From contig CAYRQL010000001.1 in NCBI GenBank assembly GCA_964426525.1, positions 130,294-194,293 on the forward strand: a stretch of 64,000 nucleotides of DNA, given 5' to 3'. The position numbers and the translations under genes are program-made. Below the pieces are notes generated by a model that had not been told where the DNA came from, made no database searches, and saw nothing but the letters and a program-made list of their open reading frames with translations. This DNA is from an uncultured Actinomycetota bacterium. Lineage in GTDB: Bacteria; Actinomycetota; Aquicultoria; SKW223; CALKMS01. Below are positions 2,883 to 52,463 of the stretch, one piece after another; positions within the stretch are counted from its first letter, which is position 1, and each line of letters begins with the position of its first letter.

Positions 2883-3785
2883 GTGAAAGAGAAAATAAAA
2901 GATTTTTTAGAATTTCTGACTTACGAAAAAAAGTACTCACCGGAAACCATTCGAGCTTATCGAGCCGATCTACTTCAATTTGCTGAATATTTAAATAGGT
3001 TAAAGATTTCAATTGAAGAAATTAACCCTATTATTTTAAGAAGATACATAGCTCATCTTCATCTTAAAGGTTTGTCTCGGGGGCGCTATTCAGAAGCAAC
3101 AATGGCACGAAAAGTAGCTTCTTTGCGAGCTTTCTTAAACTACTTAGCGGACAAAGGAATTTTACCTTCAAGCTTTGAGGTTTTTTTACCATTTCCAAAA
3201 CTAAAGAAAAAACTCCCTGAAATTTTAAGCTCTTTTGAGTTGTTAAACTTGATTGAAATGGTTAAACCCAATAAACCTCTTGTTTTTCGCGACAAAGCTT
3301 TAATTGAAGTTCTTTTAGGTACTGGTTTGAGAGTCAGTGAGCTGGTATCACTAAATCTTGACTCAGTCAGTTTTGACCGCTGCGAGCTTAAAGCAAAAGG
3401 AAAGGGTAACAAAGAGAGAGTAGTGCCCATAAATTCTGAAGCTGAAGAGGCATTACGTACATATCTTTCTAAAGGACGTCCTTTTCTTTTTTGTAAGGAA
3501 ACTGAAGCACTTTTTTTAAACAATCGAGGAGGCCGTTTGACTACGGCTGGTGTTCGAAAAATCCTTAGGAAGTACGCCGGGAGACTTTACGGGAAATCCC
3601 GTCTTCATCCACATCTTTTTCGTCATACTTTGGCAACTGGTCTATTGGAGGGTGGGGCAGATTTACGTGTAGTTCAAGAGGTTTTAGGACATTCCTCTTT
3701 GTCAACTACTCAGGTTTATTTAAAATTAGGGGTTGAAAGACTAAAAAAAGTTTATAAAAAATCACACCCAAGAGAACAGGGGTAG
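2883..3785 (+). CDS. xerC: Tyrosine site-specific recombinase XerC/XerD (CodV) family
   Basis: GTG start. The C-terminal catalytic region reads RHTLATGLLEGGADLRVVQEVLGHSSLSTTQVYLKL (R..HxxR..Y). Chromosomal trmFO-xerC context. Confidence 0.85.
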   Translation: MKEKIKDFLEFLTYEKKYSPETIRAYRADLLQFAEYLNRLKISIEEINPIILRRYIAHLHLKGLSRGRYSEATMARKVASLRAFLNYLADKGILPSSFEVFLPFPKLKKKLPEILSSFELLNLIEMVKPNKPLVFRDKALIEVLLGTGLRVSELVSLNLDSVSFDRCELKAKGKGNKERVVPINSEAEEALRTYLSKGRPFLFCKETEALFLNNRGGRLTTAGVRKILRKYAGRLYGKSRLHPHLFRHTLATGLLEGGADLRVVQEVLGHSSLSTTQVYLKLGVERLKKVYKKSHPREQG

Positions 3786-19894: not shown

Positions 19895-20512
19895 AGGTAA
19901 ATCATCTGTTAAAAGTGAGTAGTCGTCAAGATTTTAAGGAAGGTCGAGTCACAAATTTTGACACTTGTCTTTCCGTATATAAGCTTAGAATATAGTTGAT
20001 TAAACTTTAAAGAGTAGAACATTTAATGTTGCATTGTTTTGACACTTCCATCAAATTAATGTGATTAAAAAAACATTTTCTGAATTTGAGAAATAAGAAA
20101 AACTTGCCTTTTTTAAAGTATGTATGCAATTAATGTCAATACCATTTTCTCTTCAAAATAGAAAACATAAGGAGTTTCATTTTTATTGTAAAAGTAAGTT
20201 TAAGTAAGCTAAGATTGTTTCTGTTGCATTATTTTCAATGACTCATTTGAAGTAGTTGTAAACCATTGCAAGAGTAAGTGGTAGCGGTAATATTGCTTCC
20301 TTTGATTAAAACAGTCTGGATCCTTTGATTTTCTGCATCATAAGAGTGAGTAATAGTAGCTTCATTAGAGATTTAAAAAAATATTCAAAGGACAATTTAG
20401 GCAGTAGGCATTTTGGTAGAATTTTTTAAAAATTTGAATTTTAATGGTTGAGTTATTTTTGTCGCAGGGGTGTTTTATTATAATCAAAGAAATCTAAAAG
20501 GAGGGGTTCAGC

Positions 20513-36495: not shown

Positions 36496-36551
36496 ATCTT
36501 TTGTAAATTGGGGAGGGAAAGAGCCCATTTGAACAGCTAATATGCTTCCAG

Positions 36552-36573
36552 ACGCTTTCTAAGCGTTTTTTTA
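36552..36573 (+). terminator. Probable rho-independent terminator after dut (ACGCTTtctAAGCGT plus T7)
   Basis: Short GC-containing inverted repeat followed by TTTTTTT about 55 nt after the dut stop. Confidence 0.4.
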
Positions 36574-36768
36574 AGCACCGGTTATATTTTTTATATATTT
36601 AAGGAGTTAAATTATCTCTTTTAAATCCTTTTAATTATGTATTTAGATAATTCACGAACATTTAAGGGGACACAATTAAACACGAATGTTAACATTGTTA
36701 ATTTATTATTAAAAAGAAGCCTTATTAATCTTCAATTTTTTTCAGAGCTTTAATTTTTTTTTTGCACT

Positions 36769-36788
36769 TAGTTTAAATTAGTTTAAAT
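36769..36788 (+). repeat. Tandem 10-bp repeat (TAGTTTAAAT x2) inside the 460-bp AT-rich spacer, preceded by a T11 tract
   Basis: Exact duplication seen in the sequence. Confidence 0.7.
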
Positions 36789-36955
36789 ATTTAGTAACAC
36801 CAAATGGGGAGTTAAATCGTTTATAATGTTAGAAATAATTTAAAAGTAAATTCTTTTGTTACGATAATATATGTTATGTAAACTAAAATAATGTTTGTTT
36901 TAAATTTTTAATTAGGTAAAATAGAGTGGTATAAAGAAGGACGGTTGAAGAGGAA

Positions 36956-37588
36956 ATGGCAAAGTTTTATGAAGACTATTGCGATAGAGCTTGTGGACAT
37001 TTAAAGCTTTCTGAGAGACGTTGTTTTCGCAATGAATGTCACCTGAAAAATTTTTTTGATGAGCTATTGTTGAAAATACCTAAAGATACTATGTTGAGTC
37101 TTTCGGATACCATTAGGGCTCTTCAATTAGAAAATGATTTAAGAAATACCCGTTATGGAAGCTTAATTAAACAAGTCAACCTTAAAGGTCCTACCCTATT
37201 AATTAACTTTGATGATTCTGTTCTTTCTGCTGAAGATAAAATAAAGTTAAACTTTGTTAATCCTGACGAAGTGCTTATTATTTCTGCCTATCGTATTTTA
37301 GTGACTAATCCTCAAATTCATGAGTTTAAGCTATCTTGCGCTCTTAAAAATTTACCTGAGGTAAATTTGGTAACCACCCGACATCGGCTGATTGAATTAA
37401 TTTCTCATAGTGGTATGAGTGAAATTAAGAGAGATTGGAACGCAATTTGGAATTACTTCCGTCCAGTCCTAAACAATCCCGAGTTTGCTGATAAGGTTCG
37501 CCAATTTTTGAATGGTTATTCAAATGACAACCCAATCGAAATTCAGAGTCAGGAATCGCCCGGTTGGCTTAATAAGTTTTTGAAATGA
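36956..37588 (+). CDS. Hypothetical protein with an N-terminal Cys/His cluster (C-x3-C-x-H ... C-x4-C-H), probably metal-binding
   Basis: 210-aa ORF. N-terminus MAKFYEDYCDRACGHLKLSERRCFRNECHLKN. AAGAGGAAATG Shine-Dalgarno site. No family recognised. Confidence 0.45.
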   Translation: MAKFYEDYCDRACGHLKLSERRCFRNECHLKNFFDELLLKIPKDTMLSLSDTIRALQLENDLRNTRYGSLIKQVNLKGPTLLINFDDSVLSAEDKIKLNFVNPDEVLIISAYRILVTNPQIHEFKLSCALKNLPEVNLVTTRHRLIELISHSGMSEIKRDWNAIWNYFRPVLNNPEFADKVRQFLNGYSNDNPIEIQSQESPGWLNKFLK

Positions 37589-37596
37589 TAAGATAA

Positions 37597-38415
37597 ATGA
37601 AGAAAGTTGCTTATCCCATAACTTATTATGCTTTTACACGAGAAGCTATTTTCTATCTAATTCTTTTATTATTAATTTTGGTTCTTTCTCTTTTGCCCTT
37701 AAATTTGCTGGCCGCCATATCTGTTTTCCTTTTTATCCCGGTTATTTTAGCTTCAGCTTTTTGGTTTAAAAATGGTGGTTTTTGGGCAGGAATAGTTTCT
37801 GCTTCTATCTTAATAGCTGTTTTTGTTGCGGTTTTTTTGGCTGATTTTTCTTTTTCTCCCCTGGCAACTCTTTCTTTCTTTTTGGTCATACTTTACCCGG
37901 TTGCCGGCTGGTTTTTGGGGCAAACTGCTCAATCGGTATCAAATCAATTTGGCGAACTAGAGCAACACAGATTGAGTAGCGCGATTAGCGCTATTTATAC
38001 AAAAGAATATTTATCAAATCTTATTCATAAATATATTAAAGAATACGAAAGATATAAAAGTAATTTTTCTATTATTTTAATGGAGATTGATCCCAAAGCT
38101 ATGGAAGCAGTAAGTGCTTTTCGGCGAGAACATATACTAAGTGAAATCGCTTCAGTTATAAGGAAGAATATAAGAACAATTGACGAGCTTGGTCGTTATG
38201 AAAATCAGTTTTTAATGGTTCTTCCCCATACTCCTTTTCAGGGTAGCCAGGTTGTTGAGGGAAGGGTTAAAAACTTGATTTTAAAAGTCTTACAAAGTCA
38301 TGGTTGCGAACCAACCTCTGAACAGATTTATGCTGCTGCTGTTTCTTATCCAGAAAATAAACAGGGCATGGAAAAACTTCTTCATGCCCTGGAAGAACCA
38401 ATCTCTTTTTCCTAG
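37597..38415 (+). CDS. Membrane-anchored (about 4 TM) degenerate GGDEF-domain protein. Active-site motif RYENQF in place of RYGGEEF. Retains an RxxD I-site.
   Basis: Hydrophobic N-terminal 110 aa. C-terminal region aligns to the GGDEF fold (SIILMEIDPKAMEAV... RTIDELGRYENQFLMVLPHT). The I-site RTID sits 3 residues before RY, the same spacing as RAIDLPCRYGGEEF in PleD. Confidence 0.55.
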   Translation: MKKVAYPITYYAFTREAIFYLILLLLILVLSLLPLNLLAAISVFLFIPVILASAFWFKNGGFWAGIVSASILIAVFVAVFLADFSFSPLATLSFFLVILYPVAGWFLGQTAQSVSNQFGELEQHRLSSAISAIYTKEYLSNLIHKYIKEYERYKSNFSIILMEIDPKAMEAVSAFRREHILSEIASVIRKNIRTIDELGRYENQFLMVLPHTPFQGSQVVEGRVKNLILKVLQSHGCEPTSEQIYAAAVSYPENKQGMEKLLHALEEPISFS

Positions 38416-38432
38416 TAATTTTCCTAGTAATT
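38409..38432 (+). repeat. Tandem 12-bp duplication (TTCCTAGTAATT x2) spanning the stop codon of the GGDEF-like gene
   Basis: Exact repeat. The TAG stop at 38413-38415 is duplicated at 38425-38427. Confidence 0.75.
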
Positions 38433-38436
38433 TAGT

Positions 38437-38877
38437 TTACTTTTTGCCTTCGACCTCTTTTTTTATAGCGTCTATTTTGCTTTTAATTTCTTCAAGCTCA
38501 GCTTTAAGTTTTTTAACTTCTTCTTCTTTAGCCTTTATTTCTTCTTCCTTAGCTTTAACCTGAGCATCTAACTCATCAATTTCTTTCTTTCTCTCATTCT
38601 TTTTAATTTCAAGCCGGCGCTCAAGTATTGATGAGATTAAAGCTTCTTCTTCTGGGTATTTCTCAAGGCATTCAGGCCCTACCGAATGAACCATACTGCC
38701 AACCTGGACTTCTTTTCCTTTAATAATCTTGCGGGCGTCCTTGTAAAGTTTGTAGGTGTCCCCTTCTAGAATGTAGTACTCAGCATAAACCACACTGTCA
38801 GCGTCGCAAAGAAAACACTTTTCCGCTTTTTCAACTTCCTTTCCATTTTTGAAATCATACTCGAAATATACTCCCAT
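38437..38877 (-). CDS. Hypothetical small protein, paralog 1: N-terminal MGVYFEYDF...CFLC domain plus a C-terminal E/K-rich coiled coil
   Basis: 146 aa. Shares about 40% identity over the first 90 aa with the ORF at 39606-40019. The C-terminal 50 aa are almost pure K/E heptads. Confidence 0.5.
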   Translation of the reverse strand: MGVYFEYDFKNGKEVEKAEKCFLCDADSVVYAEYYILEGDTYKLYKDARKIIKGKEVQVGSMVHSVGPECLEKYPEEEALISSILERRLEIKKNERKKEIDELDAQVKAKEEEIKAKEEEVKKLKAELEEIKSKIDAIKKEVEGKK

Positions 38878-38908
38878 TTTAACCTCCTTTATAAAAAAAT
38901 ATTTCTTA

Positions 38909-39613
38909 CTAAATTAAGATAGAATGGCCCGGTTCAAGAACTTTTCCTTCAAAACCCCTTTCTTCAATTTGAGAAAGAAACTGAGCAGGGTCAACCTGGC
39001 GGGACTGATAAATGCCAGCGGGGAGATTATAGTGCATAGGGATAGCAATACGAGGCTTAATTTTGTCAATAGCCATAATAGATTCCGTCAAGTCCATTGT
39101 CGTTCCACCACCAATCGGTATAAGCAATAAGTCCGGTCTCCATTCTTCCCAGTCATCCCTTAATAGAGTTTCGCCTAAATGGCAAATTGTGCGCTCTTCC
39201 AAAGTAATAAAATAACCAAGCCCTTCAGGTGTTGCACTTTTTCTTTTAAATAAGCTCCTCAATCCTCCCCCAATTTGTCCTGGTGAAGCTTTAAAAGCCT
39301 GGATTTTTACCCCAAGAATATTAATTTCTTCCTGGGATTTTATTGCTTGAAAATTAACATTCTCCACATCGATGTGCTCTTTTAATTCCTCAGGTCCCAC
39401 TACAACCTTAAAACCTGAAGAAATAACTGACGGGAGAGCTCCTGAATGGTCTTCGCCAATCGAAGTTACTAAAACTAAATCAGTATCGCTGTATTCTTCC
39501 TGACGAATAATTGGATTTTCTTCTGGGATGGCTTTCCCAGGGTCAATTATAATTTTAACTGTTTCACCCTTAACAACGAAGGAAGAATAGCCATAAAAAA
39601 CTACTCTAACCAA
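38909..39613 (-). CDS. Metallo-beta-lactamase-fold protein (UPF0173-like) with a degenerate HxHxDH motif
   Basis: YGYSSFVVKGETVKIIIDPG start and DLVLVTSIGEDHSG (only the DH of HxHxDH is kept). Later His/Asp residues (IPMHYN) remain. Overlaps the upstream paralog gene by 8 nt. Confidence 0.6.
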   Translation of the reverse strand: MVRVVFYGYSSFVVKGETVKIIIDPGKAIPEENPIIRQEEYSDTDLVLVTSIGEDHSGALPSVISSGFKVVVGPEELKEHIDVENVNFQAIKSQEEINILGVKIQAFKASPGQIGGGLRSLFKRKSATPEGLGYFITLEERTICHLGETLLRDDWEEWRPDLLLIPIGGGTTMDLTESIMAIDKIKPRIAIPMHYNLPAGIYQSRQVDPAQFLSQIEERGFEGKVLEPGHSILI

Positions 39614-40019
39614 CTTTACCCTCCTTTGCTTTTTCTAAGTGATAATATAGCTTTCCCAATCGCTCTACTAACTCCAAGAACTCTTTTTTGGTTTCTTCGA
39701 TTTCTTTTTCGATTGTTTGTGTTTGAGAAGTGATTTCTGTCTCCTTTTCTTCTTTTCGTCGCCTAATAATCTCTGATACTAAACTTTCCTCGCTCCCATA
39801 TGTGTTATAGCAGTCTTCACAAATCATATATTCAGCACTTCCTACTTTGATTTGATGCCCACTATGAAGTTTTCTTGCATTGTCATATAGAGAATAAACT
39901 AACCCGGTTTTTATGTGATATTCGACAAAAAGCACTTTTTTTTGTTCACAAAGATAACAGGGAAACCACCTTTCAACTTCTTTTCCCTCTTCAAAGTCAT
40001 ACTCGAAATATATCCCCAT
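39606..40019 (-). CDS. Hypothetical small protein, paralog 2: MGIYFEYDF... with two CxxC pairs (CYLC ... CEDC, zinc-ribbon-like) plus a coiled-coil tail
   Basis: 137 aa. The conserved N-terminal block is MG[VI]YFEYDFxxGKEVE...CxLC...EY.I..G..Y.LY.NARK...G...VGS. Confidence 0.5.
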   Translation of the reverse strand: MGIYFEYDFEEGKEVERWFPCYLCEQKKVLFVEYHIKTGLVYSLYDNARKLHSGHQIKVGSAEYMICEDCYNTYGSEESLVSEIIRRRKEEKETEITSQTQTIEKEIEETKKEFLELVERLGKLYYHLEKAKEGKVG

Positions 40020-40070
40020 CTATCCCACCAAAGGTTATAATAACGAGATTCACCTATAAAATCAAGTAAA

Positions 40071-40385
40071 TTAAATGCTTTTTGGTAAAAAAAGATATTT
40101 TTTTTCCAGTTGGCTTTTGGTTAAAGTGGTTAAATCCTCTTGTATTTCTTCAAAAGCTCTGAGCGCTTTATCTTTATCAACAAAATACCGCCAAGGATAA
40201 ACGATCTTAGTTTCGAGGTCAACAAATTCGATCAGGAATTTTCGCAGGCTCTTTCCTTCTTCTAATGGAGGCGGAAAATAAGAAATGCCTTCCTTCCAAT
40301 CAAGTTCGGCTGGAAACTCACAAATAATTTCAAAAAGCCTGACACGATAAAAATCATTAGCTGGGCCTATGACTTTGGTCATCAA
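40071..40385 (-). CDS. Hypothetical protein (104 aa), first gene of the minus-strand operon in the island
   Basis: ORF preceded by a 174-bp AT-rich spacer. No recognisable motif. Confidence 0.35.
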   Translation of the reverse strand: MMTKVIGPANDFYRVRLFEIICEFPAELDWKEGISYFPPPLEEGKSLRKFLIEFVDLETKIVYPWRYFVDKDKALRAFEEIQEDLTTLTKSQLEKKYLFLPKSI

Positions 40386-40559
40386 AATTATTCTACTTTA
40401 TTCTTCTTTTTAATCAACTCACTTTTAAACAAATTAACAAGAATGCTATAAAAAAATTCTATTAATCCATCTTTTCTGTTAGAAAGAGTTAAAAATGTTC
40501 TATTTCGTCAGATCTTATACCGAGTTGAAAATAAATGCTGTTCAGATTAAAATTTTAAA

Positions 40560-41612
40560 ATGATGATTAAAAAAAGTTTTATTAAGATTTTACTTTTAAT
40601 TTGTTTATTTTTATCTATCCCCTCTTTTAAATTACTGGCTGTTCCTCCATCCACTATTAGCGCACAGAGAGCTGAAATTGAAGAGATTAAAAGAAAAATT
40701 AAGCAGCTCGAGTCTCAACGTGAACTTTTGTCAGAGTATAAAGTAGCTCTGAGTAATCATCTTGAAGTGCTTAATGAAAGGCTTGCGTTAACCCGATTGC
40801 GATTAGACCGCACCCAAAAGTTTTTAAAAAAAGAAGAGAACATAGCCAATCAAAGAATTAGAAAAATTTACATCTATGGCGACCGTGGGGTTCTCCATCT
40901 TCTTTTGAACGCTCAGAGTTTCTCTGATTTTATTACCCGCTTTTATGTTATTTCTCGCTTGCTTCAAAATGACCAGTTAGTAATTCGAAAAATCGATAGT
41001 TATCAGCAAGAGATACAAAAGATTGAAAAAGAATTGCTGGAAGAAAGAAAAGAAAAAGACATTTTAAACGAGCAATACTTGCTGAACTTGGCAAAGCTTA
41101 ATCAAAAAGAAGAAGAGCTAAGAAAACTTTTAACTCAGGCAAACGATGAGCTTAAAAACCTTTACCAGCAAATGAGGCTTGCTTATGAAACATCTTTACG
41201 AAGAACATATAGTACTCCCGGTTACTTAGGTACAGTGGTAGAAAGATATGTTACAGTGGAGCCTTATCTAAACCAGTATTACCTAACTAGCGCCCAATTT
41301 CCAGCAAAATTTAAGGCCACTGGAAAAACTTTTTCAGTTTATTCAAGCTGGTATGGTCCGGGGTTTCATGGGCGAAGAACCTCAAGCGGAGAAGTTTTTA
41401 ACGAAAATGATTTCACCTGCGCACATAGAACTCTTCCTTTCGGTACGTTCCTGGCAGTGAAGTATAAGGAACGAAAAATAATTGTCAAAGTTAACGACCG
41501 CGGCCCATTTATACCAGGAAGAGACCTTGACCTTTCAAAAAGGGCAGCTCAAGCCCTTGGATTTTCAGGAGTTGTCAAGGTTGATTTTGAAATTGTTACT
41601 CCCCTACCTTGA
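40560..41612 (+). CDS. RlpA-like double-psi beta-barrel protein (septal ring lytic transglycosylase family) with N-terminal signal peptide and a long coiled coil
   Basis: C-terminal block SSWYGPGFHGRRTSSGEVFNENDFTCAHRTLPFGTFLAVKYKERKIIVKVNDRGPF, which is the RlpA DPBB signature. N-terminal hydrophobic leader. Confidence 0.7.
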   Translation: MMIKKSFIKILLLICLFLSIPSFKLLAVPPSTISAQRAEIEEIKRKIKQLESQRELLSEYKVALSNHLEVLNERLALTRLRLDRTQKFLKKEENIANQRIRKIYIYGDRGVLHLLLNAQSFSDFITRFYVISRLLQNDQLVIRKIDSYQQEIQKIEKELLEERKEKDILNEQYLLNLAKLNQKEEELRKLLTQANDELKNLYQQMRLAYETSLRRTYSTPGYLGTVVERYVTVEPYLNQYYLTSAQFPAKFKATGKTFSVYSSWYGPGFHGRRTSSGEVFNENDFTCAHRTLPFGTFLAVKYKERKIIVKVNDRGPFIPGRDLDLSKRAAQALGFSGVVKVDFEIVTPLP

Positions 41613-44031: not shown

Positions 44032-44505
44032 CTAAAGCCCCAACCCTAAAGACTTATTAACGAATTTCTGAAAGCTAACAAGCTGACTTCCTGGCCAAAA
44101 AACTCGATGGCAGGACGAACAAGTGAAAAAATAATCCTGAGTAAGATAAACATATGGCGGCACTTGAGAAAGAACCTGCTCTGGTAAAGTATTGGCTAAT
44201 CTAATATTGCAAAACGGGCAAAAAGCCGGTTTTTGAGGTTTAAGGGGAAAAGCTTTGTTAACTTCTTTGATTTGTTCCTCGGTTTTATTACTGACAATCA
44301 AAAGTGACTTCACCTTTCCTTGTTTAACAATTTTTCGCTTGACCAGCTGTCGATCACGGGTAAGGAGAATGCGATTTTCTCTAAAAGCAATATAGATAAG
44401 ACTTGAATCGTCATTAAGTTTTAAATAAAGGGAATCATAGCCCAACAGTCTTAGCCACCTTGCTAATTTTCCGAGCATGTAATCAAGCAAAAATTTTTCA
44501 GGCAT
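44032..44505 (-). CDS. Mut7-C RNase domain protein (DUF82; PIN-like plus Zn ribbon)
   Basis: MLGKLARWLRLLGYDS N-terminal signature and C-terminal CPFCN ... CSSCHRVFW Zn ribbon. Start overlaps the MerR stop. Confidence 0.6.
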   Translation of the reverse strand: MPEKFLLDYMLGKLARWLRLLGYDSLYLKLNDDSSLIYIAFRENRILLTRDRQLVKRKIVKQGKVKSLLIVSNKTEEQIKEVNKAFPLKPQKPAFCPFCNIRLANTLPEQVLSQVPPYVYLTQDYFFTCSSCHRVFWPGSQLVSFQKFVNKSLGLGL

Positions 44506-45197
44506 TATCCTGAGTAGTATTTTTCTAAAAGCCTGACAAGTAGAATTTTCCGCAGTTCGCTTAGGTTTTTTAAAAGAATTTGCAGCTTTTCCCAGGCTTG
44601 ACGCTTTCCTTCGCTACTCCTTTGCTTTAGATATGGAAGCAGCATTTGTTCAATAAAAATTTTTTCCCTCTCGCTAAAGTTAACATACATTCGAAGGTGG
44701 CGCGGCTCAATTCCAAAAGAGGTTAGATTAGCAAATATTTGAGCAATTTTTAAATCGTACTGAGTAAATTCCTCTCCCTCTAAGGTGTTTTCGGGTAAAA
44801 AAATTCCATAGCTTACCATTTCTCCCACAACCTCGTCTGAGAGATTGGTAGCTTTCCGAAACTTATCCCGATTTAAGCCCTGCGTTTCTTCAACTTCAGC
44901 TTCTTCTTCAATTTGAGAAAATATCGATTTTAAAGAATCGGCTTGACTGCTTAATTTTTCTTTTATTACTGTCAGGGGCAGAAAGCGTTCTTTTTGAAGC
45001 CGCAAAATCAGTCTTAAGACCTCAATATCATGTTCATTAAACATTCGGTAACCAGAGCTACTCCTCTTAGGTTTGATCAATCCCTGTGACTCCAAAAAAC
45101 GGATTTTGCTTGGGGTTAAATCAGGAAACTCAGATTTAAGAAGATCAACAACTTGATTAACTTTTAATAAATTAGAGACGAGTGCCTTTTTGGGCAA
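44505..45197 (-). CDS. MerR-family transcriptional regulator
   Basis: N-terminal MerR HTH (LTPSKIRFLESQGLIKPKRSSSGYRMFNEHDIEVLRLILRLQKE) plus a 150-aa C-terminal domain. Confidence 0.7.
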   Translation of the reverse strand: MPKKALVSNLLKVNQVVDLLKSEFPDLTPSKIRFLESQGLIKPKRSSSGYRMFNEHDIEVLRLILRLQKERFLPLTVIKEKLSSQADSLKSIFSQIEEEAEVEETQGLNRDKFRKATNLSDEVVGEMVSYGIFLPENTLEGEEFTQYDLKIAQIFANLTSFGIEPRHLRMYVNFSEREKIFIEQMLLPYLKQRSSEGKRQAWEKLQILLKNLSELRKILLVRLLEKYYSG

Positions 45198-45199
45198 GT

Positions 45200-45637
45200 T
45201 TACCTCTTTTTAAAGAAAACTAATTTAAATTTACCAATTTGAATTTCTGCTCCCTGATCAAGATGAGCTCTGTCCACTCTTTTTCCATCTACGAAAATTC
45301 CGTTAAGACTCCCCAGGTCTTCAATAAAAGCTTCGTTTTTTTCAAAAAAAATTCGCGCATGACGACGAGAAACGGTTATATCGTTTAAAAATATATCACT
45401 TGCCGGGTCCCGTCCAATTGTTATCTCTTCCTTTTCAATGAAAAACTCCGTTCCTGCAGACGGTCCCTTTTTAATTGCTACCGTGTGAACTTTATCAGTA
45501 GAAGGTTTTACTTCGACTTCGTTACCAGCTAAAGCAGATGTTTTTAATAAAGCAGTGTCTTCCTGAATCTGGTGGTTGCAATGAGGACAGAAACTCACAT
45601 CTTCACTGACTATTTTTTTGCAGTTGGGGCAAAACAT
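45200..45637 (-). CDS. Zinc-ribbon plus FHA-domain protein
   Basis: N-terminal CPNC...CPHC. C-terminal FHA (TIGRDPASDIFLNDITVSRRHARIF...NGIFVDGKRV). Confidence 0.75.
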   Translation of the reverse strand: MFCPNCKKIVSEDVSFCPHCNHQIQEDTALLKTSALAGNEVEVKPSTDKVHTVAIKKGPSAGTEFFIEKEEITIGRDPASDIFLNDITVSRRHARIFFEKNEAFIEDLGSLNGIFVDGKRVDRAHLDQGAEIQIGKFKLVFFKKR

Positions 45638-45640
45638 ACC

Positions 45641-45913
45641 TCACTCCCCTGAAAGAGAAAAGAAATCCATTTGCTCTTTGAAGGATTTGTTTATTTCTTC
45701 TTCTAAGGTTGCTATTAACTCGGGGTTTTCTAATAAACGAGTCATTTCTTCTTCACTCAAACGGTTCTTAATGTAAGGGTCTTTTAAAATTGATGGTAAA
45801 CGCCGCCCATTTTTTAGCTCACGAATAATATAATTAACTATTCTTTCTTCAAGAAGATCAACGCTAAGTTCTTTAAAAAAATTAGTAATTCGATCTCTTA
45901 AACTATTTTCCAA
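45641..45913 (-). CDS. Hypothetical small protein (90 aa)
   Basis: ORF in the operon upstream of the FHA gene, with an AGGAGG-like Shine-Dalgarno site (GGAGGTTTAAC). Confidence 0.4.
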   Translation of the reverse strand: MENSLRDRITNFFKELSVDLLEERIVNYIIRELKNGRRLPSILKDPYIKNRLSEEEMTRLLENPELIATLEEEINKSFKEQMDFFSLSGE

Positions 45914-45980
45914 GTTAAACCTCCTTTTATTAAAGTTTAACTTTAAACAAGAGATTTGACAACTACTTTTTAAAAATGAG

Positions 45981-46511
45981 TTAGAAGTTACTGGCTAAAA
46001 TTTGCTCGATCTTGTTCAAGATTGTTTCAATGGTTGTTTCTGGTTTAGTAAGTCGGCGTTCTAATTCATTTTTTAAAATGTCCAACCAGCCATGAATTAA
46101 TCGGCGGACAAAAGAAACTTCGGCTTCTTTGTTGCGCAGTGCAGCAAGACTTTTTTCTAACTCTTCAATAGAGCTGTCAGTGGGTTTTCCTGTTAAAGAA
46201 GGTAAGGTAAAAAGATTAGCAAGATCAACATCATCAAGACTTTTCTTACAAGAAACGGGAAAAGATTCAAGAGTAGAAGCAAGACTTTCAAGTAATGAGC
46301 GATCTCTAAGAGAAGGATTAGCTGCTAAACGATTAATAAGTTCAGCTTTAAAGCCATTATCGATCTGATGAAGGTTGTTTCTGAACTGAGAAACTTCTTT
46401 TTCTAATTCACTGAGCTCTGCAAAAAGTTTCTTCAAATCAGAAACTGACTTGCTTTCAATATTGAGAAAGGCTTCCTGAAGTTCTTTTAAGTCCATTTTT
46501 TTCTCTAACAT
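45981..46511 (-). CDS. Hypothetical coiled-coil protein (176 aa)
   Basis: First gene of the minus-strand operon ending in Mut7-C. No recognised domain. Confidence 0.4.
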   Translation of the reverse strand: MLEKKMDLKELQEAFLNIESKSVSDLKKLFAELSELEKEVSQFRNNLHQIDNGFKAELINRLAANPSLRDRSLLESLASTLESFPVSCKKSLDDVDLANLFTLPSLTGKPTDSSIEELEKSLAALRNKEAEVSFVRRLIHGWLDILKNELERRLTKPETTIETILNKIEQILASNF

Positions 46512-49623: not shown

Positions 49624-51702
49624 TTATTGCTCCTTAGCCAGGTTTTGCTTAATTTCTTCCCACTCAGATAAAGTTAGTAAAACTTCTCGTGGTTTACTTC
49701 CTTGAGCCGGGCCAACGATTCCTCTTTCTTCTAGTAAGTCCATTAGACGAGCCGCTCGGGCATAGCCAAGTTTAAATTTCCTTTGAAGATAGGTTACTGA
49801 TGCTTTCCCGGTGACAATCACTAACTCTGCGGCTTCATCAAAAAGAATATCTTCCTCTCCCAAGGCAAGCGGTTTAAGATGACTGATCTCCACCACTTTG
49901 AAATCGTACTGTGGCTCCATTAAAGCTTTCCAGTAATCAACTACTTTTTCAATTTCATTCTCGGTGACATAAACTCCTTGTAGGCGACGAGGTTTTAGCC
50001 AGGAAGGAGTTATAAAAAGCATATCTCCTTTTCCTACTAGTTTTTCTGCCCCAGGGCTATCTAAAATTACTCGAGAATCAACTTGAGAAGAGACGGCAAA
50101 AGCAATGCGGGAAGTTATATTAGCCTTGATTAGTCCAGTTATAATATCAGAAGATGGCCTTTGAGTGGCAACGATTAGATGGATACCAACAGCTCGGCCC
50201 ATCTGAGCTAGTCGGCAAATTGCATCTTCTACTTCTTTAGCAGCAATTATCATTAAATCGGCTAATTCATCGAGAACAATGACTAAATAAGGAAGTTTTT
50301 CTTTGGCTTCTTTATTGTAAGAATCAAGATGGCGAGTTTTAGTTTCAGAAAGAAGCTCGAAACGCTTTTCCATTTCTTCTACTGCCCAAGCAAGAGCAGC
50401 AGCTGCTTGCTTCGGGTTGACAACAACCGGGACAATCAAATGAGGAATATCATTATATAAGTTCAACTCAATTCTCTTGGGGTCAATCATTATAAATTTC
50501 ACTTCATCAGGTCGTGCTCGTAAAAGAATGGAAGTAATAATAGCATTTAAACAAACACTTTTACCTGAACCGGTTGCTCCGGCAATCAAAAGATGTGGCA
50601 AGCCTTTCAAGTCAATAACAACAGGTGTTCCGGTAATTTCCTGACCGACAGCTACTGCTAAAGGTGACTGAGCTTCCTGGAAATCAGGCGTTTTTACCAA
50701 ATCCCCAAGATAGACAAAAGAACGATAAATGTTGGGCACTTCAATTCCAATAGCAGACTTCCCGGGGATAGGAGCTAAAATTCTTAAGTCAGGTGAGGCA
50801 AGAGCTAAAGCAATATCTTCTTCAATGTTTAAAATTTTGTTAACTTTTACTCCAGGTTCAAGTTGAATCTCAAAACGGGTTACGGTTGGTCCTTCAACAA
50901 CATTTTCTATCCAGGCTCCAACCTCAAATTCTCGCAAAGCTTTTTCTAACGCTGTTTTCATTTCTTTAGCCGATTTTTTCTTTTTCCCACTCGAACAAAG
51001 CAAATACTTTTCAACCCCTTCTTTTTTAATGATTTCCAGAGGCACAGTAGCAACCTCGTTAATGGGTTTGGTTCTTTTTTCTGATAACGGTTTTTCTAAG
51101 GGAACAGTTTTTTCTTCAGTTAACACGGGAAGAGTTTCTTCAACAAAGGTCAATTCGGGTTGTTCAGAAAGATTCAAATTTCTGGCTGGTACTCGGTGGG
51201 AGACGCAGGTTTTTTTTCTCCCTAAACGGATAAAATCAGTTAGAGGTCTCCTGACTGTCAAAACAACTCCAATCAGAAAAACGCCAACGAGAATAACAGT
51301 TGCTCCTACAGGTTTAAGTAAATAAACAAGTGGATAAGATAAAAGAAAACCCACAAACCCACCATATTTAGTTAATGATTCAAGAGCGTACATTTTGTTG
51401 AGTGGAACTAAAATGTGACTTTGGGCTAAGAGTGAGACCCCGATTAAGGACAGACCGAGTATAATATCATTCCAGTAAACTTTACGATGAACTAGAAGAA
51501 TGCCTGATAAACCTAAAAGTAAGAAAGGAAATAAAAACTGCCCCCAGCCAAGAAGCCAGCTTAAAAAAAAGACAGTATAACGACCGACAATGCCAGTGTA
51601 GTTGCTGAACAAGGAAAAAAGCAAGAAAATTGCTAGTGTGGCAAGGATTATAGCATAAACATCAGCGTAATAATCAACTTCATTAGCTTTACCCTTTTTC
51701 AT
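49624..51702 (-). CDS. ftsK: DNA translocase FtsK/SpoIIIE
   Basis: N-terminal TM segments. Motor domain with Walker A IAGATGSGKSVCLN and a gamma winged helix at the C-terminus. I moved the start to the ATG at 51702 (GGTGG Shine-Dalgarno site), which forms an ATGA overlap with the uppP stop. Confidence 0.9.
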   Translation of the reverse strand: MKKGKANEVDYYADVYAIILATLAIFLLFSLFSNYTGIVGRYTVFFLSWLLGWGQFLFPFLLLGLSGILLVHRKVYWNDIILGLSLIGVSLLAQSHILVPLNKMYALESLTKYGGFVGFLLSYPLVYLLKPVGATVILVGVFLIGVVLTVRRPLTDFIRLGRKKTCVSHRVPARNLNLSEQPELTFVEETLPVLTEEKTVPLEKPLSEKRTKPINEVATVPLEIIKKEGVEKYLLCSSGKKKKSAKEMKTALEKALREFEVGAWIENVVEGPTVTRFEIQLEPGVKVNKILNIEEDIALALASPDLRILAPIPGKSAIGIEVPNIYRSFVYLGDLVKTPDFQEAQSPLAVAVGQEITGTPVVIDLKGLPHLLIAGATGSGKSVCLNAIITSILLRARPDEVKFIMIDPKRIELNLYNDIPHLIVPVVVNPKQAAAALAWAVEEMEKRFELLSETKTRHLDSYNKEAKEKLPYLVIVLDELADLMIIAAKEVEDAICRLAQMGRAVGIHLIVATQRPSSDIITGLIKANITSRIAFAVSSQVDSRVILDSPGAEKLVGKGDMLFITPSWLKPRRLQGVYVTENEIEKVVDYWKALMEPQYDFKVVEISHLKPLALGEEDILFDEAAELVIVTGKASVTYLQRKFKLGYARAARLMDLLEERGIVGPAQGSKPREVLLTLSEWEEIKQNLAKEQ

Positions 51703-52463
51703 TTTAACCACCAAACACTCGCAGACCCCAGGAATAAACAATAAACTGCAAAAAGATATAAAGTCTTTTGCTTTAAATATTTTAATAGAAAATCAATAAC
51801 AATATAACCCGTGATAAAAGAAACCAAAATTCCGATAAGAGTTGGTATTAATGGAATCTGACTTAAAGATACTTCTTTCAATTCAAAAAGGAAGCTACCT
51901 AAAAATATTGGAAGACCCAAAAGAAAAGAAAATCGGGCTGCATCTTGCCGCTTTAAACCCAGAAATAATCCAGCCGAAATAGTAGCTCCTGAGCGCGAAA
52001 TGCCTGGAAAAATAGCTAATGCTTGGGCTGTTCCTATTACTAAAGCTTCAAAAAGATTAAGATTTAGCTTTGCTTTCTTAAAAGTAGCTAACCTTTCCGC
52101 AATAAGTAAAAGTAATCCATTAAAAATTAAAAATAAAGCTGCCCAGAGAGGCTTTTGAAAAAACCTTTCAAAAAAATCACGAAACAAAAGACCAGCAAAA
52201 GTTGCTGGAATGGAAGCTACCACGATAGCCTTTAAAAGATTTAAGTTTTCTTCTCTTGATTTGAAAAAGGCCTCAATTTGTTTTCGAAAGTAAACTAAAA
52301 GTGCTAAAAAAGTACCAAAATGAAGACTTATATCAAAAAAAAGAGAAGGTTGGGAGATTCCTAAAACTGCAGGAAGGATAACCAGATGAGCTGAACTGCT
52401 TATCGGGATAAATTCAGTTGCTCCTTGAGCAATAGCTAAAAACACTATTGACCAGATAGCCAT
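51699..52463 (-). CDS. uppP: Undecaprenyl-diphosphatase
   Basis: BacA/UppP motifs (GATEFIPISSSAHL, PGISRSGATI). Confidence 0.9.
   Translation of the reverse strand: MAIWSIVFLAIAQGATEFIPISSSAHLVILPAVLGISQPSLFFDISLHFGTFLALLVYFRKQIEAFFKSREENLNLLKAIVVASIPATFAGLLFRDFFERFFQKPLWAALFLIFNGLLLLIAERLATFKKAKLNLNLFEALVIGTAQALAIFPGISRSGATISAGLFLGLKRQDAARFSFLLGLPIFLGSFLFELKEVSLSQIPLIPTLIGILVSFITGYIVIDFLLKYLKQKTLYLFAVYCLFLGSASVWWLK

Follow-up and report, generated by a model that had tools for sequence, protein, structure and literature searches.

The question raised by this locus is what brought six unnamed genes together between two long AT-rich spacers, and whether they form a signalling or effector module of foreign origin, as an earlier reading of the same DNA had suggested (the original prediction). 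The stretch analysed (hereafter the window) comprises 64 kb of DNA from a metagenome, in which the block in question takes up positions 36496-40559. Following the results below, it seems that the block is a vertically inherited, lineage-restricted composite gene cluster that lies where replication of a Candidatus Geothermocultoraceae chromosome terminates, a reading to which we assign a probability of about 0.6.

The six open reading frames (ORFs) were re-derived at the same positions as before, in two convergent operons. The plus-strand operon consists of a gene of 210 aa (36956-37588), the product of which is a soluble, lineage-restricted orphan with an N-terminal Cys/His cluster and a C-terminal GWLxKF tail, and, after a gap of 8 nt, a gene of 272 aa (37597-38415) for a protein with about four transmembrane (TM) helices followed by a degenerate GGDEF domain (TM-GGDEF). 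The minus-strand operon is headed by a gene at 40071-40385, of which the ORF spans 104 aa and for which gene callers start at the second Met, giving 103 aa; its product is likewise a lineage-restricted orphan. Behind it come the type-A paralog (paralog 2, 137 aa, 39606-40019), a gene for a protein of the metallo-beta-lactamase (MBL) fold (234 aa, 38909-39613) and the type-B paralog (paralog 1, 146 aa, 38437-38877); the 103-aa gene and the two paralogs are referred to as the trio. Counted from dut to the RlpA-like gene, the successive spacings are 460, 8, 21, 31, -8, 51 and 174 bp, where the 21 bp separate the stop codons of the two operons and the -8 is the overlap of the type-A paralog with the MBL start. 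Short gaps or overlaps at this junction and at the 8-nt gap are also present in orthologous loci. The short tandem duplications reported for the block exist as well: a perfect 12-bp one (TTTTCCTAGTAA, 2.2 copies, 38407-38433) spans the GGDEF stop codon and fills the gap to the convergent paralog.

The spacer between dut and the 210-aa gene (36496-36955) is as AT-rich as had been claimed, with a GC content of 0.25, as is the 174-bp spacer at the other end of the block (GC 0.22). Within the former, at 36857-36884 on the plus strand, lies a dif-like Xer recombination site of 28 bp, TGTTACGATAA-TATATG-TTATGTAAACT, which has an 11-6-11 layout (xxxTxxGATAA, a central hexamer, and TTATGTAAACT) and carries the conserved ATAA/TTATGT core of bacterial dif sites. 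Nowhere else in the window is the dif pattern matched exactly, and a position weight matrix (PWM) built from the orthologous sites gives it 36.5 bits, versus 4.7 bits for the next best position in the 64 kb. The dif strings of Escherichia coli and Bacillus subtilis were also used in the PWM analysis. A published table of proteobacterial dif sites includes AATTCGCATAATGTATATTATGTAAAGT (PMC2731167), and by our own count the 28-mer of the window agrees with the Bordetella pertussis dif of that paper at 20 of 28 positions. Exactly one dif site, in the same orientation and always in the interval from dut to the paralogs, was found in 14 related loci and additionally in L019 and L020; it is missing from four contigs that are short and partial (L005, L008, L017 and L018), and every locus that covers the interval has one.

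When five orthologous spacers were aligned (that of the window and four others), conservation was confined to three elements, namely the terminator at the 5' end, the 28-bp dif sequence and a short -10-like element that precedes the 210-aa gene (GGTAAAATA in the window); the remainder is non-conserved AT-rich DNA. The long border is therefore made up of the dut terminator region, a dif site and a promoter, rather than being the edge of an island. Judged by all of the properties that can be tested at the sequence level, this spacer holds a chromosomal dif site. A 38-aa ORF called within it (L001; window 36637-36753) is not conserved and was treated as spurious, and no RNA family of Rfam was matched anywhere in the window. 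Long spacers are also less exceptional here than had been supposed: gaps outside the block were said to be 0-50 bp, whereas other spacers of 618, 343, 338, 210 and 198 bp occur. No intergenic region of the window is longer than the first of these (19895-20512, GC 0.29), which precedes recA and has no Rfam match at the gathering threshold.

Summed from position 1, the GC skew increases up to about 38 kb and declines from there on, with the cumulative G-C maximum at 38306, which is 1.4 kb from dif (the mean skew being +0.126 to the left of dif and -0.086 to the right). Of 34 large ORFs before 36.5 kb, 32 are on the plus strand; the gene strand flips at 38.4 kb, and after 41.6 kb the non-overlapping large ORFs are on the minus strand, with one exception. 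The block is located at the terminus of replication, with skew and gene orientation switching between its convergent operons. The dif site and the switch in skew and strand had both been overlooked before. Also encoded in the window are a XerC/XerD-type tyrosine recombinase, i.e. the enzyme class that acts at dif (2883-3785, plus strand; Phage_integrase and SAM_1 domains), and an FtsK-type DNA translocase (49624-51741, minus strand; NF007615 FtsK, E 4.6e-127 with partial model coverage). The former is the single gene of its type in the 64 kb and scores 291 bits as XerC and 283 bits as XerD, both under the equivalog cut-offs. What made the block look like an island (long AT-rich borders, convergent operons and unnamed genes) is the look of a replication terminus with its dif site.

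The window belongs to Candidatus Geothermocultoraceae (Actinomycetota, class Candidatus Aquicultoria). A scan of one genome per species returned four loci, the named ones being from Candidatus Geothermocultoraceae (91% identity) and Candidatus Geothermocultor quzhuomuensis (58%), and an identical MBL protein is found on metagenomic contigs only; taken together, the species-genome scan, protein look-ups and a metagenome scan provided about 12 distinct related loci. All of these have a common backbone of NrdD, a thioredoxin-like gene, NrdG, dut, the block, the RlpA-family gene, a TrkA-like channel and HPRT. The claim that there is no synteny logic between dut and the RlpA-like gene does not hold, as the order of dut, trio, RlpA-like, TrkA-like and HPRT genes is kept in every related locus. 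Six-gene loci, all with the same gene order, comprise the window, L010, L011, L014, L015 and L019, with L017, L018 and L020 as partial loci (clade 1). In the trio-only loci (L003, L006, L009, L012 and L013; clade 2), the 103-aa gene is followed directly by the type-A and type-B paralogs, and the MBL, 210-aa and GGDEF genes are absent. The two gene states correspond to two clades in a tree of the TrkA-like protein (the window, L010, L011 and L014 versus L003, L006, L009 and L013), to which L015 and L017-L020 (clade 1) and L012 (clade 2) were added by their layout. In clade 2 the dif site lies 50-70 bp past the stop of the type-B paralog, and in clade 1 it lies 50-70 bp ahead of the start of the 210-aa gene. 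Because the trio occurs alone in the sister clade, and the MBL, 210-aa and GGDEF genes in one clade only, the block is a composite, in which the MBL gene was inserted between the paralogs of an old trio operon and a two-gene operon was wedged between dif and the trio.

It could be argued that the six genes nevertheless form a single signalling or effector system, in which a receptor for cyclic di-GMP (c-di-GMP) and its Cys/His partner control a complex of the MBL protein, the paralogs and the 103-aa protein. All six are found in order in each locus of the six-gene clade, though neighbouring proteins are down to 40-48% identity, the convergent stop codons are merely 1-21 bp apart across loci, the three added genes occur as a set or not at all, and the genes are under purifying selection (see below); that the genes are real, uncatalogued and conserved together, as had been predicted, is thereby borne out for this one deep clade. 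In the tree, however, the six-gene state is placed on one branch only, and the co-occurrence, all-or-none as it is, therefore counts as one evolutionary event. Moreover, the sister clade maintains the trio in the absence of the other three genes, each operon is transcribed on its own, and with the whole neighbourhood being syntenic, adjacency is little informative. Likewise, the paralog-MBL-paralog triad always accompanies the TM-GGDEF gene in clade 1, whereas the sister clade has paralogs without either MBL or GGDEF. Searches of the six proteins against PADLOC, PHROGs and NCBIfam gave only GGDEF, MBL and coiled-coil noise; among the defence models, the matches were this noise for paralog 1 and CARF_TM at E 0.04. 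No defence, phage or curated family explains the block, and by these searches it falls outside all catalogued defence systems, in line with the original prediction. One dedicated six-gene module, with the trio on its own in the sister clade and the six-gene state on a single branch, is considered unlikely.

The loci of both clades show further variation. On the other side of dif, L003, L006 and L013 carry a gene for a Macro-domain protein and one for a peroxiredoxin, whereas in L009 and L012 no gene separates dif from dut, which indicates that both flanks of dif are variable slots. In two of these loci the peroxiredoxin between dut and dif had been split by gene callers into two 'AhpC-TSA' ORFs, which are joined by an in-frame TGA at the position of the peroxidatic Cys (FYPGDFTFV-TGA-ATE; L003:9569-10324 and L006:9602-10312, both minus strand). 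In L003 the TGA is immediately followed by a hairpin, GCAACCG-AGCTTTCGG-CGGTTGC, and the gene is a candidate for encoding a selenocysteine peroxiredoxin. A small additional ORF that is rich in Cys (62-106 aa) lies upstream of the 103-aa gene in L011 (9324-9644, plus strand), L014 (12462-12758, minus strand) and L015 (8784-8972, minus strand) and is absent from the window and L010; its longer copies, in L011 and L014, have a CLHCxDC motif, and according to hhalign it is unrelated to the N-terminus of the 210-aa protein. In L020 (1386-2001) the 210-aa gene is in two overlapping pieces in different frames, i.e. a frameshift or an assembly error of the metagenomic contig.

If the composite were of foreign origin, the block, or its three clade-specific genes, could be an island that was integrated at dif by Xer recombination and subsequently domesticated. 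Integrative mobile elements exploiting Xer (IMEX), e.g. CTX phage and the gonococcal genetic island, make use of such sites. In favour of this, the 210-aa/GGDEF operon directly adjoins dif, at the very place where the sister clade is empty, and across dif the sister clade has other cargo (the Macro-domain gene and the peroxiredoxin), both flanks being variable. Against this, the far border has nothing to offer as a second site: no other dif-like site was found at the borders of the block or elsewhere in the window, the best score at 38380-38480 being -14 bits versus 36.5 for dif, and a weak inverted repeat at the GGDEF/paralog junction (I3), considered as a dif remnant, was rejected on that same -14 bits. 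The MBL gene was inserted inside the trio operon and not at dif. Neither an integrase nor a transposase is present in or beside the block, a tRNA scan found none, flanking attachment repeats are limited to short pairs at chance level, and the block proteins have no relatives in viral contigs or plasmids. Nor is a donor lineage visible for the 210-aa and MBL genes, as far as homologs indicate: of 5.8 billion clusters only 9 belong to the 210-aa family, and these are confined to the six-gene clade, while MBL orthologs score at least 292 bits, versus at most 72 bits for generic UPF0173 proteins (a gap of 220 bits).

A foreign signal was also sought in the composition of the block relative to its flanks, and the block proved to be native. 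The GC content, the GC content at third codon positions and the synonymous codon usage of all six genes are within about 1.5 standard deviations of the 59 other genes of the window, paralog 1 being, if anything, more typical than average, and in tetranucleotide distance the block ranks at the 80th percentile among stretches of its size. An island at dif, an ancient insertion included, is accordingly deemed improbable, with no sign that the block is mobile DNA, and recent horizontal acquisition, which had been thought compatible with the AT-rich borders, disagrees with the native composition as well as with the lack of a tRNA, a second dif and viral or plasmid relatives. For the analysis of selection, the window genes were compared with their orthologs in L010, where synonymous divergence (dS) is saturated and, for the 210-aa gene and paralog 2, not computable. 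Non-synonymous divergence (dN) amounts to 0.06-0.11 for all six genes, and dN/dS is 0.037 for the GGDEF gene, 0.026 for the type-B paralog, 0.052 for the MBL gene and 0.033 for the 103-aa gene, which is the same as for flanking genes. All six genes are functional and long-resident.

In the TM-GGDEF protein of this vertically inherited cluster, the GGDEF domain is matched with 29 bits (PF00990, Pfam cut-off 23.8; TIGR00254 with 32.6 bits is under the cut-off of 37.4) and is preceded by the TM helices (about four, by hydropathy). R193-T-I-D196 aligns with the RQSD of the I-site of PDB 3ign, while GRYGGEEF of the active site of 3ign has become GRYEN-QF through a one-residue deletion. In five orthologs ENQF is invariant, as are R193, D196 and R223. 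The description as a membrane-anchored degenerate GGDEF protein with an intact I-site was thus accurate, and because the GG[DE]EF motif of the active site is missing, the protein is, on its alignment, not an active diguanylate cyclase. It is most likely a membrane receptor for c-di-GMP rather than a cyclase, as had been proposed. In PelD, the GGDEF domain of which is likewise degenerate and follows a membrane anchor, c-di-GMP is bound through the very same residues of the I-site (PMC7112168). The protein is not PelD proper: no significant sequence similarity to PelD was found in a PDB search, which matched generic cyclases only, no GAF domain was matched in Pfam or NCBIfam, and its neighbours are orphan genes. 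That the lineage uses c-di-GMP is suggested by the nearby RsiG-family gene at 45981-46511 (precomputed Pfam).

The co-translated 210-aa protein has, as described earlier, a Cys/His cluster near its N-terminus, with C9, C13, H15, C23 and C28 being invariant (C-x3-C-x-H-x7-C-x4-C). A sub-threshold match to DUF7833 was found for this N-terminus in 7 of 9 members, and a profile search of the PDB with the alignment found nothing. The TM-GGDEF protein would bind c-di-GMP at its RxxD I-site in a PelD-like manner, being unable to make c-di-GMP itself, and would pass the signal to the 210-aa protein at the membrane, on which the GWLxKF tail of the latter could lie. Sensing of c-di-GMP by TM-GGDEF and signalling through this partner is a tentative proposal, less probable than its opposite.

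The MBL protein is a diverged offshoot of UPF0173 that is confined to the six-gene clade. It matches Lactamase_B_3 (PF13483) with 73 bits and PRK00685 with 87 bits, under the cut-off of 144, and its closest relatives in the PDB are TM_1162 (E 1.4e-16, residues 3-232) and Igni_1254 (E 1e-16). The degenerate metal motif that had been noted, like the overlap with the type-A paralog, is confirmed: HxHxDH reads SIGEDH, the aligned later His is lost, and HaGDT has become HLGET (Asp to Glu). Among orthologs the motif varies (THNDPDH, TSVSEDH, TLPERDY), and in one the final His of PMHY is missing. With a metal site decayed to this extent the protein does not qualify, by its motifs, as a canonical UPF0173 hydrolase. 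Since the metal ligands are replaced and variable among orthologs, yet the gene is under purifying selection, it is probably a UPF0173-derived pseudoenzyme that has been kept in a non-catalytic role.

That the two small minus-strand proteins are paralogous was correctly predicted, with 45% identity over 95 aa (E 2e-29). Both have a zinc-ribbon-like beta domain, in which CxxC knuckles (C21/C24 and C67/C70; four conserved Cys in type A) are placed at the ends of a small beta-sheet, with an extra long beta-hairpin and a C-terminal coiled-coil helix of 60 residues. In the type-B paralog of the window, residue 67 is Gly instead of the third zinc-ribbon Cys (VGPEC versus C-x-x-C), all other members having Cys, and its metal site may be impaired. 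Both domains are acidic (pI 5.0-5.3). Type-B orthologs are found in both clades (L003, L006, L009, P0018), and the family has three representatives among 1.84 billion protein clusters. No zinc-ribbon family in Pfam, NCBIfam or the PDB is matched, nor is any solved structure, and the 103-aa protein, which occurs in both clades, has no match in Pfam, NCBIfam, PHROG, PADLOC or the PDB. The c-di-GMP motif of the RsiG type (ExxxSxxRxxxQxxxD) was looked for in the paralog helices and is absent (alignment checked by eye). Paralogs A and B most likely pair through their C-terminal helices, and the 103-aa protein would complete the hetero-oligomer; the MBL pseudoenzyme of clade 1, translated from the overlapping start, would probably join this complex as a non-catalytic subunit.

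The position of the trio raises the possibility that it forms a terminus-linked or division-linked complex, given its fixed place between dif and a gene for a septal-type RlpA/PcsB-like hydrolase. This gene (40560-41612, plus strand) encodes an RlpA-family lytic transglycosylase with a DPBB domain and a PcsB-type coiled coil (DPBB_1 75 bits, CC_PcsB 38 bits; TIGR00413 rlpA 99.7 bits, cut-off 82) and is found in every related locus that is long enough to show it. The trio adjoins dif in the trio-only clade or is at most 1.6 kb away, it is divergent from the RlpA-family gene in all loci, and the window contains FtsR (184 bits, above the cut-off), an FHA protein and FtsK. Yet the whole 20-kb region is syntenic, so that adjacency is not specific to the trio, and there is no similarity to known proteins of the divisome or of segregation; the acidic trio paralogs are also unlike typical DNA-binding zinc ribbons. 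The divergent spacer (40386-40559, 174 bp) has promoter-like hexamers on both strands, but nothing common to the 8 aligned loci beyond a -10-like element. Altogether, a division-linked trio is regarded as very unlikely. As a separate observation, FtsR (MerR family), the FHA protein (OdhI/FipA-like) and the RsiG-family protein are encoded together at 44505-46511, in a cluster that is typical of actinobacterial division control and conserved beside the block in all relatives.

Combining these elements, one may imagine an undescribed c-di-GMP-controlled membrane complex of one uncultured Actinomycetota family, consisting of an A/B pair of unmatched fold, an MBL pseudoenzyme and a Cys4His protein. 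As the promoter of the receptor operon is within about 70 bp of dif, a coupling of expression or activity to the resolution of chromosome dimers and to septation is conceivable. In this full form the proposal is a long shot.

A number of points weigh against the lineage-restricted cluster at the terminus, or against the functions proposed for its members. The term terminus refers to local skew, strand bias and dif in a 64-kb metagenomic stretch and not to a closed genome with a mapped origin; in addition, the skew maximum is off dif and coincides with the change in coding strand, which means that part of the skew signal reflects gene orientation. For c-di-GMP binding, the case consists of three conserved residues in a domain that is weakly matched. 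The structure model of the 210-aa protein is of medium quality (pLDDT 69.8), and its double alpha-beta-beta-alpha sandwich core has generic structural neighbours only; for this protein, the 103-aa protein and the paralogs, no informative homolog backs a function, and the A/B heteromer is a predicted one. Finally, all six genes have been kept together across a deep clade, which makes a functional link between the operons conceivable.

Even so, a usable dif consensus and terminus marker is now available for the uncultured class Aquicultoria. The paralogs constitute a family that is exclusive to the lineage, always occurs as an A/B pair and is without sequence or structural relatives, the MBL protein is a clear case of an enzyme turned into a conserved (apparently non-catalytic) protein, and the TM helices with the degenerate GGDEF domain amount to what would be a minimal receptor with an orphan partner. 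No long-standing question is answered by this, and the organism is uncultured.

Set beside known systems, the locus is best seen as a set of genes specific to one lineage, located at a chromosome terminus and including a variant of a PelD-like receptor. The dif site has in common with the chromosomal sites of XerCD and FtsK that it is a 28-bp, 11-6-11, intergenic, AT-rich and unique sequence, near the skew maximum and conserved in relatives, with Xer and FtsK genes present; it differs in that the window has one Xer-type gene. With IMEX elements the block shares clade-specific genes directly beside dif, but a second flanking dif and phage or transfer genes are lacking, and the block has a native composition and consists of ancient genes that have become fixed in the clade. 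The MBL protein aligns over its full length with the UPF0173 hydrolases (TM_1162, Igni_1254/Igni18; PRK00685) and belongs to the same Lactamase_B_3 fold family, whereas its metal ligands are replaced, its score is under the family cut-off and its gene is embedded between coiled-coil paralogs. The paralogs have the two CxxC knuckles of zinc-ribbon proteins (one homolog carries the automatic label 'RNA polymerase subunit M/TFIIS' of the Joint Genome Institute, JGI), but they are acidic and have a long hairpin and a coiled coil, and one paralog of the window has lost a Cys. The TM-GGDEF protein, lastly, resembles PelD-type receptors in its N-terminal TM helices, its ruined GGDEF active-site motif and its conserved RxxD with a downstream Arg, while it has no GAF domain between membrane and GGDEF domain and no pel or polysaccharide operon around it, its partner being an orphan 210-aa Cys/His protein instead.

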